A DNA stretch of 32,000 nucleotides, taken from the NCBI RefSeq assembly GCF_000017305.1, contig NC_009664.2, positions 2,880,001 through 2,912,000 of the forward strand, written 5' to 3'. The translations under genes were made by a program, and so were the position numbers. Below are positions 1,948 to 6,653 of the stretch, piece after piece (the first letter of the stretch is position 1; each line of letters opens with the position of its first letter). This DNA is from Kineococcus radiotolerans SRS30216 = ATCC BAA-149. GTDB lineage: Bacteria; Actinomycetota; Actinomycetes; Actinomycetales; Kineococcaceae. The notes under the pieces were generated by a model. It did not search any database and was not told the DNA's origin. It saw nothing but the letters and a program-made list of their open reading frames with translations.

Positions 1948-2235
1948 GTGCCCGACCTCCGCCTGGACACCGTGGAGCTCCACGCGACGGCGACCACCCT
2001 GGACTCGGTGGCGGGAGCCCTGTCCGCCACCGACCGCGTCGCCGACATCGGCGCCGAGGCCGCCGGCCACCGCGGGCTGGCCACCGCCGTCCAGGACTTC
2101 GCCGACACCTCCGCGCGGCAGCGCTCCGAGCTCGCCGAGGCCACCGCGGCGTACGCCCGGCGCGTCCGGGAGGCGGCGCGCGCGTTCGAGCAGGCCGAGG
2201 ACGGCCTCGCCGCCGCCGCGCGGGGGGAGGGCTGA
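1948..2235 (+). CDS. Small helical-hairpin protein, EspC/DUF2580-like (WXG100-superfamily 'type VII secretion target'-like), 95 aa
   Basis: GTG start at 1948. The opening MPDLRLDTVELHATATTLDSVAGAL, a mid turn and the tail AAYARRVREAARAFEQAEDG have the size and layout of EspC/WXG-like proteins. There is no literal WxG. The stop overlaps the next start (TGATG at 2233-2237). Confidence 0.55.
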   Translation: MPDLRLDTVELHATATTLDSVAGALSATDRVADIGAEAAGHRGLATAVQDFADTSARQRSELAEATAAYARRVREAARAFEQAEDGLAAAARGEG

Positions 2236-3890
2236 TGCTGCTCGGCGCGGGGGGCGGCGCCCGGCCCGCCGACTGGCAGCCCCTCGCCGGCGAGGACCCC
2301 GTCCCCGGCCGGTCGGCCGACCTCGGGGACGTCGCCCGGCGCTGGCGCGGCGTGGCCGAGGAGCTCGAACGGCAGGCGGGGGAGGTCCGCCGCCTCGCCC
2401 GCGGCACCGACGCGGCCGGGCGGACCGTGGAGGCGCTCGGCGAGGGCGCCGGCGACCTCGCGACGCGCCTGACCGGCGCCGTGGGCCGGTACCGGGCCAC
2501 GGCGGGAGCCCTCGACGACTACGTCCCGCACCTGCAGGACGCCCAGCGCCGCAGCCTCGACGCCCTGCACGCGGCCCGCGACGCCCAGGCCCGCCACGAC
2601 GCGGCGGCCGCGGTCCTCGCCGCGAACGGCACCCCCGCGCCCGCCCCGGCGCCGGTGCCCGGCGACCCCGCCGCCACGGCCACCGCCGCGCACGCCCACG
2701 CCGGGCGCGAGGCCGACCGCGCGGCCCGGGCCGGTGCCGCGCGCCGGGACGCCGGCGCCGCGAGCGCCGACCTCGCCGCGGCCCGGGCGCACCTGGCCGC
2801 GGCCGTGGCCGACCGGGACGCCGCCGCCGAGCGCGCCGCCCGCGCCATCGCCGCCGCCTGCGCCGGGGACCCGCTGCGGGACAGCCGCTTCGACCGGTTC
2901 CAGCAGTGGGCGCACGAGAACGCCCGCTGGATCGAGAAGGCGTCGGACTGGGCCTCCACGATCGGGGCGATCGTCGCGCTGGCCGCGCTGGCCGTGGGGT
3001 GGATCCCCGTCGTCGGTCAGGCCCTGGCCGCCGCGCTGGGCATCGTCGCGCTGCTCGCGACCGGCTTCGCGCTGGTCGGGCACACCCTGCTGGCGCTGTC
3101 CGGCGACGGCAGCTGGACCGCCGTGGCCGTCGACGTCGTCGGCCTGGCCACCTTCGGCATCGGCAAGCTGGCCGCCCCCGCCGCCAAGGCCGCCGCCGCG
3201 GCCCTGGGGGAGGCCGACACGGCCGTGCTGGCCACCCGCGCCGCGCAGGCCGCGCTGCGGGCCCGGGCCGGGGTCGAGGGGGTCGCCGACGTCGCCGCGC
3301 GCGGCCTCGACCCCGCCGCGACGGCGCTGTCCATGGCCTCGGGCGGCATGCGCGGCGCCACCCGGGCCGCCACCCGCGACGCCCTCGGCACCAGCGGCAA
3401 CGCCGTCGACCGGATCCGCGCCGCCACCCGCGCCGCCTGGCGCTCCGAGGACACCCACGGCGCCGCGGCCACCGCGTTCGCCGACGCCCGGGCCGCCCTC
3501 GCCAAGCCCTTCACCGAGTTCCCCGACGTCCTCGGCGGGGCCAGGGCGATGAAGGACGAGGCCCGCGGGGTCTTCGACGGGCAGAAGTGGAAGGACGCGT
3601 ACACCGCGGTGAAGGCGATGCCGCCCGGCGACGTCGGCTCCGCGGTCACCCGGGGGCTGACCGACGCGGTCGCGCAGGCCAGGACCCTCACCGGCGTCGC
3701 CGACGCCGCGAAGGTCGTGGGGACGACGACGGCCGCGAAGATGGCCGCGGCCGTGGCGGCCGACGCCTACACGTCCTACGAGGGGATCGCGCAACCCCTC
3801 AACGAGCTCCACCTCCCGCACGTGTGGCTGCCGACGGCGCAGTCCACGTCCCAGGCCGTCCTCGAGAAGGTCGCGGGGGAGCGGCGGTGA
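2235..3890 (+). CDS. Ala-rich 551-aa protein: N-terminal T7SS-signal/LXG-like helical domain, three central hydrophobic helices, C-terminal domain of unknown function
   Basis: ATG at 2235, in frame with the 1797..3890 ORF. N-terminus PADWQPLAGEDPVPGRSADLGDVARRW...YVPHLQDAQRRSLDAL resembles the 'putative T7SS secretion signal' domain of actinobacterial secreted proteins. Hydrophobic segments at about aa 241-312 (nt ~2955-3170). I recognise no motif in aa ~320-551. Confidence 0.6.
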   Translation: MLLGAGGGARPADWQPLAGEDPVPGRSADLGDVARRWRGVAEELERQAGEVRRLARGTDAAGRTVEALGEGAGDLATRLTGAVGRYRATAGALDDYVPHLQDAQRRSLDALHAARDAQARHDAAAAVLAANGTPAPAPAPVPGDPAATATAAHAHAGREADRAARAGAARRDAGAASADLAAARAHLAAAVADRDAAAERAARAIAAACAGDPLRDSRFDRFQQWAHENARWIEKASDWASTIGAIVALAALAVGWIPVVGQALAAALGIVALLATGFALVGHTLLALSGDGSWTAVAVDVVGLATFGIGKLAAPAAKAAAAALGEADTAVLATRAAQAALRARAGVEGVADVAARGLDPAATALSMASGGMRGATRAATRDALGTSGNAVDRIRAATRAAWRSEDTHGAAATAFADARAALAKPFTEFPDVLGGARAMKDEARGVFDGQKWKDAYTAVKAMPPGDVGSAVTRGLTDAVAQARTLTGVADAAKVVGTTTAAKMAAAVAADAYTSYEGIAQPLNELHLPHVWLPTAQSTSQAVLEKVAGERR

Positions 3891-5076: not shown

Positions 5077-6653
5077 TGGCGCCGGTCCGACCGCGCCGCG
5101 GCCGGGCGGGTGCGACCGTGGAGGAGCCCCGGGACCCCGGGCCCGACCAGGCAGGACGGAGCACCCCCGTGACCGAGGTCCCGACGAGGGCCGGCGCCCG
5201 CGGTCCCGCCCTGCCCCCGGCCCGCCGGGTCCCGGTGCGCGCGCGCCGCGACCGCTCCGCGCCCCCGCGCGACCGCTTCGAGGGACCGCACGCCCGGCCC
5301 GCCCCCTTCCACCCCGGGCGGCTGGACGCCCGCAGCGGGTACCTCACCGCGGATCCGGAGGCCTTCCGCTACCACTGCGGCGCCGACGTGACCGTCTGGC
5401 CGCTGCGGGGCCGGCGGCCCGTGGTGCGGGCCCTGCTGCTGCACGGCCCGGCCGCCCTCGCCTGGGAGCGGGTGGGGCGGCGGGGCCGGTTCCGGGCCGA
5501 CGCCGGCACCCCCCGGGACGCGGGGACCGGGTGGCCCGCGCCGGTCCTGCTGCTGCTCGACGCCCGCGACGTGCCCGTCCGGTACGTGCCCCTGCACGCC
5601 TGGCACCCGTGGGGCCCCCTGCCGCGCCCCGGCCACCCCCGCGGCCCGCGCCCCGCCCCGGAGGCCTCCCGGGCAGCGGCGACGGACCTGCTGGAGCGCA
5701 CCGGCTGGAGCGCGCTGCTCCTCGCCGCGCGGCTTCCGCTGTCCGACGCGCACTCCGCGCGGGAGGAGGCGCTGCGCCGGGTCGTCACCGCCTCCGGCGG
5801 CCGGGCGTTCCCCCCGCTCACCGCCCCCCACCTGCCGCGGGCCGTGCGGGGGGTGCAGCTGCTGTCCCTCCTCGCCGCGGGCGCCGTCGGGGCGCTCCAG
5901 TGGGGTCTGCTGCCCACCTCCCGGGACGGGGCGGGCCCGCGCGAGCCCTCCCTCGACGGCTGGACCCTGGCGCTGTGGGGCGCGGTGGTGGCGCTGGCCC
6001 TGCTCGCCCGGCTGCTCGTCTCCGCCCGTCAGCGGCGCGCCGCGCGCCGCTTCCCCGCCGGGACCGCGCTCGGCGCGCCGGGCGGGGTCGAGCTCCTGCT
6101 GCGGGCGCGCCCGGACGGGCGCACCGAGTGGGGCGTGCGGGAGCTGGGCCGGGAGGCGTGGTTCCCGGTGGACGGCCCCGGGGTGCCGGTGGCCCTCACC
6201 CTCGCCCACGGCCCGGCGCAGGAGCCGCGGCACCGGATCGTGCCGGAGGTGCGCGTCACCGTCGCCGGCGGCGCGGTCGTGTCGCGGGTCCCGGTGCACG
6301 CCCTCCAGGACCGGCCGCCGTCGACGGACGTCGTCGACGACGCGACCCGGGCCCGGCTGCAGGCCTTCGCCGCCCGCGTCGGCTGCCGGTTCGAGGTCCT
6401 CGACCGGGCCGAGCCCGTCCCGACCAGCGACGGCGCGAAGGGCTACCGCTCCTACCCGTTCGGGCTGTTCGCCGCCCTCCAGCTCGGCGTGACGGTGAGC
6501 TGGTCGGCCCGGATCGCCCTCAGCGGGGCCGGGTCCTGGTGGGTCGTCGCGGCGGGGCTGCTCGCCCTCGCCGCGACCGTGCGGCTGCTGTGGTTCCGGC
6601 CCCCGCGCGACCGGGTGCGCAACGCACCCGTGCTGCGCGGGGGCGGGGTCTGA
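5076..6653 (+). CDS. Hypothetical membrane protein (525 aa): Arg/Pro-rich N-terminus and two pairs of predicted TM helices
   Basis: ATG at 5076 overlaps the upstream stop (TGATG at 5074-5078), in frame with the 4821..6653 ORF. High GC3 throughout. Hydrophobic helices at about aa 259-279, 296-315, 461-482 and 487-507. The start site is uncertain. Confidence 0.5.
   Translation: MAPVRPRRGRAGATVEEPRDPGPDQAGRSTPVTEVPTRAGARGPALPPARRVPVRARRDRSAPPRDRFEGPHARPAPFHPGRLDARSGYLTADPEAFRYHCGADVTVWPLRGRRPVVRALLLHGPAALAWERVGRRGRFRADAGTPRDAGTGWPAPVLLLLDARDVPVRYVPLHAWHPWGPLPRPGHPRGPRPAPEASRAAATDLLERTGWSALLLAARLPLSDAHSAREEALRRVVTASGGRAFPPLTAPHLPRAVRGVQLLSLLAAGAVGALQWGLLPTSRDGAGPREPSLDGWTLALWGAVVALALLARLLVSARQRRAARRFPAGTALGAPGGVELLLRARPDGRTEWGVRELGREAWFPVDGPGVPVALTLAHGPAQEPRHRIVPEVRVTVAGGAVVSRVPVHALQDRPPSTDVVDDATRARLQAFAARVGCRFEVLDRAEPVPTSDGAKGYRSYPFGLFAALQLGVTVSWSARIALSGAGSWWVVAAGLLALAATVRLLWFRPPRDRVRNAPVLRGGGV

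Follow-up and report, generated by a model that had tools for sequence, protein, structure and literature searches.

The 32,000-nucleotide stretch of the Kineococcus radiotolerans SRS30216 genome analyzed here (contig NC_009664.2, positions 2,880,001 to 2,912,000; hereafter, the window) carries five plus-strand genes, termed g1 to g5 (Krad_4005 to Krad_4001; Table 1), whose exact proteins are present in public collections and are annotated as hypothetical. In other actinobacterial genera, the same five families are encoded beside an FHA-EssC-like ATPase, a WXG100 protein, and a Ser/Thr kinase, and the cluster is likely to be a substrate-type module linked to a secretion system of type VII (T7SS). 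The more specific reading that we favor, with somewhat less assurance, is that it represents a detached ("orphan") copy of a widespread, uncharacterized actinobacterial T7SS substrate module with a pair of soluble holder proteins and a membrane partner. The original prediction, made from the nucleotide sequence, had described an orphan type VII-style module at this position, and this description is supported through the relatives of the five proteins and not through direct matches of the window proteins themselves. Annotation of the g2 family as a putative T7SS substrate already exists in Pfam and NCBI; as far as we have searched the literature, neither the families of g3/g4 and g5 nor the module of five families has been described.

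RESULTS

The five families recur together beside a type VII ATPase

Loci of relatives were collected using a trimmed alignment of the g2 hydrophobic core as the query, with one genome scanned per species, and gene families were called by local hidden Markov models iterated over all open reading frames (ORFs). Relatives of the g2 core were found in the genomes of 205 species, and the locus counts out of 80 given below refer to the best 80 of these 205 species, almost all of which are Streptomyces. In the fetched loci, a g1 gene is located directly upstream of the g2-family gene in 126/128 cases (in the window, the two genes overlap by one base), a g3- or g4-family gene lies at most 3.5 kb from it in 113/128 cases, and both families are present in 89/128. 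The arrangements that recur in Streptomyces are (WXG100) g1 g2 g5-like g3 g4, g3 g1 g2 g4, and g1 g2 g3. Since profile comparisons link g3 to g4 and g5 to a Streptomyces membrane protein (see below), all five Kineococcus families recur together in Streptomyces, in another gene order.

The association with a secretion ATPase is found in what we call type A loci (37/80 Streptomyces loci), in which genes for a kinase, an FHA-EssC/EccC-like ATPase, and a WXG100 protein accompany g1, g2, g5-like, g3, and g4. The ATPase, of about 1570 amino acids (aa), is divergently transcribed from the module, contains FHA and FtsK/SpoIIIE domains, and matches the NCBIfam models for EssC (E 1.5e-169), EccCa (E 8.5e-129), and EccCb (E 1.8e-95), all three below the equivalog cut-offs; the Prokaryotic Genome Annotation Pipeline labels it only as "FtsK/SpoIIIE domain-containing protein," and it is less than 30% identical to the products of the annotated eccCa/eccCb genes of Streptomyces plasmids. 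The putative S. coelicolor homologue of the ATPase is SCO4508. The WXG100 gene beside the ATPase gene matches PF06013 (E 1.5e-16), and a Ser/Thr kinase gene also adjoins. In Streptomyces albogriseolus (locus L084:2264-17855), as in loci L004-L036 and L041-L043, the kinase, ATPase, and WXG100 genes are followed by between one and three g1-g2-g3/g4 modules, arranged in tandem or inverted, and the Streptomyces ATPase locus adjoins a VitK2_biosynth (mqnA-like) gene and a cold-shock gene. The contig L092 carries the run WXG100-g1-g2-129aa-g4-g3, convergent with FHA-FtsK ATPase and kinase genes, and plasmid pTCL of Curtobacterium sp. TC1 (L094:3997-12828) carries a co-directional run of WXG100-g1-g2-211aa-g3-310aa-EssC-like ATPase with a recombinase gene just downstream, an arrangement that could represent the system in a minimal, mobile form. 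Far from never being associated with secretion genes, the block in relatives thus often stands beside a T7SS-type ATPase and a WXG100 gene.

This close association raises the question of whether the five proteins are cargo or machinery. They could be conserved constituents of a compact T7SS variant, so far undescribed, that actinobacteria possess, comprising the kinase, the FHA-EssC-like ATPase, and WXG100, in which g2 and g5 would be membrane subunits accompanying the ATPase, encoded apart from it in Kineococcus. Four observations are in line with this explanation: (i) near the Streptomyces ATPase, only the kinase, WXG100, g1, g2, g5-like, g3, and g4 genes recur; (ii) no EssA/EssB/EsaA-like or EccB/D/E-like gene is present in the Streptomyces ATPase loci inspected; (iii) on the Curtobacterium plasmid, the genes of the module and of the ATPase are co-directional in a single run; and (iv) g2 is conserved over its whole length within orthologous groups. 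On the other hand, up to three or four g1-g2-g3 modules cluster round one ATPase and many more lie far from any, a pattern typical of substrates, the N-terminal region of g2 is fused to a nuclease toxin domain in relatives (see below), and most modules are without a g5-like gene, which makes the role of a machine part unlikely.

Because Streptomyces genomes that bear the ATPase locus also carry modules distant from it, e.g., those of S. lomondensis (L023 and L073), detached copies are normal for this family. Within Kineococcus, the order and overlaps of g1 to g5 are repeated in three other species, so that the order g1-g2-g3-g4-(g5) is found in four, mostly near sucCD. Three of them, K. radiotolerans included, hold the block near sucCD, and Kineococcus auxinigenes (L086:9717-14420) has the five-gene order in another neighborhood, with a gal operon and ABC transporters, which argues that the block has moved at least once within the genus. 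In tblastn searches of plasmids, no Kineococcus record was among the matches listed for the Streptomyces ATPase, and nothing was found with g2. As a separate observation, in Streptomyces coeruleofuscus (L066:5011-11394) and about 40 similar loci, an ATPase-free g3-g1-g2-g4 module keeps the same position, with genes for a polysaccharide deacetylase/GT2 fusion protein and an acyltransferase immediately upstream of it. The fusion gene presumably resembles the poly-N-acetylglucosamine synthase MatB, and the shared position may be mere synteny or may point to a cell-surface function.

g1 resembles WXG100/EspC proteins, and g2 is related to putative T7SS substrates

The proposal that g1 is an EspC/WXG-like protein agrees with consistent, weak matches across its family. 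The window protein has weak Pfam matches below the cut-offs (DUF6317, E 0.057; EspC, E 0.12), EspC is matched by 7/7 g1-family relatives tested (E 5e-5 to 0.036, one of them passing the cut-off), and the g1 family profile also scores the bona fide WXG100 neighbors of the ATPase. The family shares a C-terminal export-type motif, [Y/F]xxx[D/E]xxL, with column frequencies of Y70/F30, D98/E2, and L100, which aligns with the motif of the bona fide WXG100 protein beside the ATPase. The Trp of the hairpin turn (Trp-x-Gly) is missing in all four Kineococcus g1 orthologues. The GenBank name of g1 (ABS05468.1), "PPE-repeat protein," was rejected as unsupported, there being no PE or PPE Pfam match on the window protein.

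For g2, a word-based search gave 43 homologues, many of which carry the Pfam domain T7SS_signal (PF21725) and the NCBI name "putative T7SS-secreted protein." On rescanning, PF21725 was matched by 12/17 aligned g2 homologues (best E 6.4e-11), and among the Kineococcus orthologues there is a weak precomputed match in K. aurantiacus and a faint one in K. arenarius. In the family alignment, six residues (D21, P22, P24, G25, R85, Y86) are invariant and two (W14, V23) are nearly so, and the motifs W..DPVPGDP and RY are shared with annotated PF21725 members. The T7SS-signal-like N terminus foreseen for g2 is therefore found in its family, and the internal hydrophobic helices that had also been foreseen appear as three hydrophobic segments with the core consensus VGWIPvvGQALA...LALSGDGsW..VavDVVGLATFGiG.

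The remainder of the protein behaves differently. In BLAST against a Streptomyces homologue, the alignment spans residues 10-322 of g2 only, whereas coverage of the query is 99% for the relative P0026 and 84% for P0027. Identity between Kineococcus and Streptomyces is 38% over the N terminus and core of g2 and 33% for g3, whereas the g2 C terminus, g4, and g5 are barely alignable. This uneven divergence fits a module in which g3 serves the constant part of g2, and g4 and g5 serve the variable part.

The C-terminal region of g2 as a possible toxin

In two metagenomic proteins (P0058 and P0062), a g2-like N terminus and first helix, up to "...WVPIVGQALA," are followed by Tox-REase-5 (PF15648, database listing); because of these fusions, GQALA looks like a point of exchange between C-terminal cassettes. 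In Cellulomonas sp. S1-8 (L003:10001-13903), four genes come after a g2-like gene: one of 165 aa, an orphan 122-aa copy of the C terminus of g2 (68% identical), a second, 164-aa copy of the 165-aa gene (78% identical), and a g3-like gene, the last of which is not duplicated. The opposite strand of the same locus (L003:2832-9475) encodes a YbjN-like protein together with three others, all large, of which one weakly matches an AHH nuclease, and the Cellulomonas region as a whole looks like a toxin island. The window itself contains no array of orphan C-terminal/immunity cassettes.

A nuclease fusion and an orphan C-terminal fragment with a duplicated neighbor are typical of polymorphic toxins, and g2 could accordingly be a classical member of that class, with a toxic C terminus, with g3 and/or g4 as plain cytoplasmic immunity proteins and not core chaperones, and with g5 as a second immunity protein or an unrelated one. 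The parallel divergence of g4 and g5 with the g2 C terminus would also follow from this explanation. It is nevertheless improbable: g3 follows the N terminus and core of g2, which are constant, and not its variable end, the g2 C termini are conserved within orthologous groups, and the duplicated Cellulomonas gene shows no detectable kinship with g3/g4 (hhalign probability below 1%), the g3-like gene being single. On the same result, the idea that the duplicated candidate immunity gene of Cellulomonas encodes a g4-type protein was dropped.

g3 and g4 are distant paralogues, and g5 has a counterpart in Streptomyces

In the substrate-module reading, g3 and g4 would be the holder pair. Pairwise BLAST between them is not significant (E 0.41), and they are distant paralogues by profile-profile comparison alone: hhalign of the g3 family against the g4 family gives a probability of 98.0% (E 2.4e-13) over 187 columns and the full length, and unrelated pairs used as negative controls score about 0.1%. 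The predicted paralogy of two acidic proteins is therefore confirmed as to kinship and only half so as to charge, since predicted isoelectric points of 6.4 for g3 and 5.1 for g4 leave g4 as the only clearly acidic member of the pair.

The AlphaFold2 model of g3 (pLDDT 86.6, predicted TM-score 0.83) has as its top Foldseek matches 3lyd (an uncharacterized Jonesia protein), CyanoP (2lnj), LpqN (6e5d), and Mtc28 (4ol4), with probabilities of 0.97-1.00, TM-scores of 0.44-0.53, and E values of 2e-3 to 3.5e-2. The model thus suggests that g3 probably has a Mog1/PsbP-like fold, an alpha-beta-alpha sandwich. CyanoP is also the top match in a profile search of PDB sequences, with a non-significant E value of 1.2. 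The family is large (1349 clusters at 50% identity, E<=1e-3), no Pfam family recurs among 122 of its members, and the PsbP, DUF1795, and Lpp-LpqN Pfam families have no match on g3, on g4, or in these 122 members; DUF1795 is itself a probable member of the Mog1/PsbP fold class. No signal peptide or membrane helix was found in g3 or g4, and the hydrophobic stretch of g3 corresponds to two beta strands in the model.

Two apparent natural fusions, both representatives of 50%-identity clusters, speak for direct cooperation of g2 with g3 and g4: a 426-aa chain (P0105) joins g3-like and g4-like domains, and a 445-aa chain (P0103) joins the N-terminal region of g2 to a g3-like domain. Another g3-like protein (P0202) is apparently interrupted by a long Pro/Gly/Ala-rich insert.

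The four membrane helices ascribed to g5 are predicted here as well. The protein consists of two beta-rich soluble regions, each followed by a membrane-helix pair (hydropathy and low-confidence AlphaFold2 secondary structure), and hhalign relates it to the membrane protein of about 470 aa encoded in the ATPase-linked Streptomyces locus (97.6%, E 4.5e-12). A beta-rich region and a helix after the first helix pair look pleckstrin homology-like, which is speculation. The earlier statement that the last three proteins match no nameable family therefore stands with respect to Pfam and gives way to a probable Mog1/PsbP-like fold for g3/g4 and a Streptomyces counterpart for g5.

Organization of the cluster

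The overlaps of start and stop codons on which the original prediction was built are present exactly as described and join g1 to g5 one after the other (TGATG at 2233-2237, GTGA at 3887-3890, GTGA at 4441-4444, and TGATG at 5074-5078). GC content at the third codon position (GC3) is 0.97-0.99 in all five ORFs and 0.96 in the flanking housekeeping genes, and because the values match, g1 to g5 are considered real genes without a compositional break, as had been claimed. GC3 alone cannot discriminate an antisense frame that shares the third codon position, and the very long antisense and out-of-frame ORFs of the region (e.g., 119-2500, 1065-3821, and 4356-6299, all on the minus strand), some with high GC3, were rejected as genes and are regarded as a by-product of the 75.6% GC content. 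Two starts differ between annotations: that of g4 is at 4441 in GenBank and 4432 in RefSeq (214 aa), and that of g5 is at 5076 in GenBank and 5169 in RefSeq (494 aa). The first ~77 residues of g5 are Arg/Pro rich, predicted to be disordered, absent from the closest relative, and not conserved, so that the g4/g5 junction is the least certain of the four, despite a GC3 of 0.87 already from 5076 onward. The predicted isoelectric point of g5 is 11.7.

The flanks are of the housekeeping type, with a short-chain dehydrogenase/reductase (SDR)/epimerase gene and a GNAT gene on one side and Dak1/Dak2 kinase, sucCD, and PerM genes on the other; the rest of the window consists of ordinary metabolism genes, so the cluster is, as stated earlier, its only non-metabolic part. 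Scans of the region for sigma-70 consensus promoters and for terminators were empty, the promoter scan being uninformative at 75% GC. A reading of the cluster as a defense system was rejected, given the lack of a PADLOC match and the consistent T7SS context.

Table 1. Positions of the five genes and of their predicted features in the window
Feature	Position	Strand	Description and basis
Intergenic region, divergent SDR/epimerase gene to g1	1762..1947	.	Presumed operon promoter region; from gene calls
g1 (Krad_4005)	1948..2235	+	95 aa, acidic; small WXG100/EspC-like helical partner
g1 residues 80-87, F-E-Q-A-E-D-G-L	2185..2208	+	Variant of T7SS export-type motif [Y/F]xxx[D/E]xxL
g2 (Krad_4004)	2235..3890	+	551 aa; T7SS_signal-type N-terminal helical region, hydrophobic core, lineage-specific C terminus
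g2 residues 21-25, DPVPG	2295..2309	+	Invariant N-terminal family motif (alignment)
g2 residues 236-314, three hydrophobic helices	2940..3176	+	Best-conserved part of family (hydropathy, alignments)
g2 residues 261-269, GQALAAALG	3015..3041	+	Conserved small-xxx-small (GxxxAxxxG) motif (regex scan)
g2 residues 330-551, Ala-rich C-terminal region	3222..3887	+	Conserved within Kineococcus, unrelated to Streptomyces C termini
g3 (Krad_4003)	3887..4444	+	185 aa, soluble; probable Mog1/PsbP-like alpha/beta fold
g4 (Krad_4002)	4441..5076	+	211 aa (214 aa from 4432), acidic; distant paralogue of g3
g5 (Krad_4001)	5076..6653	+	525 aa (494 aa in RefSeq from 5169), very basic; membrane protein
g5 residues 255-275 and 291-322, helices 1 and 2	5838..6041	+	Predicted membrane helices (hydropathy, AlphaFold2 model)
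g5 residues 460-482 and 489-506, helices 3 and 4	6453..6593	+	Predicted membrane helices (hydropathy, AlphaFold2 model)

DISCUSSION

The module structure and its context in relatives suggest a scheme in which each of the five proteins has a part. The specific division of labor that we infer is tentative, its chances falling a little short of even, and comprises the following steps: (i) g1, a WXG100/EspC-like hairpin with an FxxxE..L motif, would pair with the N-terminal T7SS_signal helical region of g2; (ii) g1 and the g2 N terminus would together form a rod-like unit recognized by an EssC/EccC-type ATPase; (iii) g2, with its three-helix hydrophobic core and lineage-specific C terminus, would be the exported protein, which inserts into or damages membranes; (iv) g3 and g4, as a heterodimer, would hold or neutralize the hydrophobic part of g2 in the cytoplasm of the producer before export; and (v) g5, located at the membrane, would act as an immunity protein or as a partner.

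Several observations weigh against the orphan-substrate reading of the cluster. When g1 to g5 were scanned directly with Pfam, NCBIfam, and PADLOC, no significant match was obtained, so that the family assignment rests on relatives; window g2 does not match PF21725 even at E<=1, and window g1 has S55 where 79% of the family carries W, along with the minority F and E variants of the export-type motif. As had been reported for an ATPase, a mycosin, and EccB/D-like genes, no EssC/EccC, mycosin, or EccB/D-like gene is present in the 32-kb window, nor is there one within 10 kb upstream; a WXG100 gene is likewise absent from both, and in all four Kineococcus species the 10 kb to either side of the module hold neither such an ATPase nor a WXG100 gene. 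In the g2 core, a canonical glycine zipper of the form (G/A/S)xxxGxxxG or GxxxGxxx(G/S/T) was looked for and not found, the strict matches falling outside the core, and the hypervariability of an arms-race toxin is not seen, since the g2 C terminus is conserved within orthologous groups, across about 40 Streptomyces species. The match of g3 to its fold is only moderate, and the AlphaFold2 model of g5 is poor (pLDDT 46) because the word-based search gave only 2 g5 relatives. Finally, many modules ("type B," g3-g1-g2-g4) are without a g5-like gene, and g5 therefore cannot be a universal immunity partner.

Some of the same observations would be expected if the Kineococcus module worked without T7SS machinery, e.g., as a self-inserting membrane system for envelope maintenance or stress that has merely inherited its T7SS features, and such a role would agree with the absence of a nearby ATPase or WXG100 gene in four Kineococcus species, with the loss of the conserved Trp and the replacement of Y by F in all four g1 proteins, and with the stable placement of the module among housekeeping genes near sucCD; we consider it the least probable of the explanations, since orphan modules are common in ATPase-bearing Streptomyces genomes and the FxxxE..L and DPVPG motifs are retained.

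Type VII secretion is poorly mapped outside mycobacteria and Firmicutes, and the present analysis joins five "hypothetical" families into one recurrent module that is tied, in Streptomyces, to a distinct clade of EssC-like ATPases. We found no relevant paper on the PF21725 family or DUF6317, on a T7SS of Kineococcus, or on Krad_4001-4005, and for SCO4508-4512 the single paper retrieved deals with constitutive promoters and mentions SCO4508 once. If the detached substrate module is what it appears to be, it would offer (i) a testable case of a Gram-positive membrane-inserting protein kept soluble and harmless before export, (ii) candidate substrates and helpers for a Streptomyces secretion locus on which almost no literature was found, and (iii) the prediction of a secretion ATPase elsewhere in the K. 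radiotolerans genome. A bolder possibility, which we regard as rather doubtful, is that the five families, with the FHA-EssC-like ATPase, the Ser/Thr kinase, and WXG100, constitute an undescribed T7SS subtype in which PsbP-like proteins hold the transmembrane helices of the effector; to about the same doubtful degree, such a subtype might be widespread in Streptomyces and present also in Micrococcales and Kineosporiales.

Among known systems, the canonical ESX systems (T7SSa) are marked by EccB, EccC, EccD, EccE, and mycosin genes, none of which is present at the Kineococcus locus. The mycobacterial ESX-4 toxin EatA, a cell-wall-targeting enzyme, has WXG100-family partners, TapA1/TapA2 (PMC13444075; bioRxiv 10.64898/2026.08.24.746431), and, as a T7SS toxin of actinobacteria accompanied by small proteins of the WXG100 family, is comparable to what is proposed for g2. 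It differs in its canonical ESX-4 machinery and its two partners, and the abstracts of those reports mention no PsbP-like or four-helix membrane partners. Closer in sequence are the "putative T7SS-secreted" proteins of Streptomyces with PF21725, which share motifs and the hydrophobic core with g2; that annotation is predictive only.

With regard to machinery, the T7SSd of Olsenella/Bifidobacterium combines an FHA-bearing EssC-type ATPase, WXG100, and a Ser/Thr kinase, and its substrates have small WXG100-related partners; the paper describing it makes no mention of Streptomyces or Kineococcus (PMC11217815; Garrett, Higginson and Palmer 2024). The trio of ATPase, WXG100, and kinase genes also occurs at the Streptomyces and L092 module loci, whereas the module loci inspected showed neither TsdH (one helix) nor the 1654-aa TsdI.

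Two further systems share the logic of the EsxX module treated below. TelE of Streptococcus gallolyticus is a membrane-active T7SS effector held, with its co-expressed partners, in a seven-protein pre-secretion complex (bioRxiv 10.64898/2026.03.12.711312; PMC10434224), in which these partners, a multi-spanning membrane protein included, bind its N-terminal, central, and C-terminal parts, by analogy with the roles we suggest for g1 to g5. The TelE system differs in being a T7SSb, in its LXG domain, and in the families and number of its partners, and no sequence similarity was detected. In type VI secretion (T6SS), Eag (DUF1795) chaperones, encoded beside prePAAR effectors, stabilize the transmembrane helices of the effector before export (PMC7773334, PMC12881460); by analogy, g3 and g4 may likewise be soluble cytoplasmic proteins encoded beside an effector with transmembrane helices, in another secretion system and another phylum, with no DUF1795 match and no Eag structure in the first 50 Foldseek hits.

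Of the systems that have been worked out, the EsxX module of Staphylococcus aureus ST398 comes closest. EsxX is an LXG substrate with a hydrophobic, membrane-depolarizing region and the helical partners LapX3 (FxxxD) and LapX4; ExiA and ExiB, a heterodimer of soluble paralogues, hide its hydrophobic zipper in the cytoplasm of the producer, and the polytopic membrane proteins ExiC and ExiD protect from outside (PMC12744356). The likeness to g1 to g5 is architectural and the differences are clear: the Kineococcus cluster, which is known from its genes alone, belongs to another phylum and has no match to LXG (PF04740), DUF5085, DUF5079, or DUF5080 at E<=1; it has one helical partner (g1) in place of two; its hydrophobic region is central in g2, without a canonical glycine zipper, and not C terminal; it has one membrane protein with four helices (g5) in place of two with six; and g3 looks PsbP-like, unlike the soluble partners of EsxX. 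Common to the two modules are a large substrate, putative in Kineococcus, in which a helical targeting domain at the N terminus goes with a hydrophobic, membrane-active region rich in small residues, two soluble paralogous alpha/beta proteins, and a polytopic membrane protein in the same block. If the reading proposed here is true, the PsbP-like holders would be the T7SS counterpart of the T6SS Eag chaperones, reached independently of the staphylococcal ExiAB solution.

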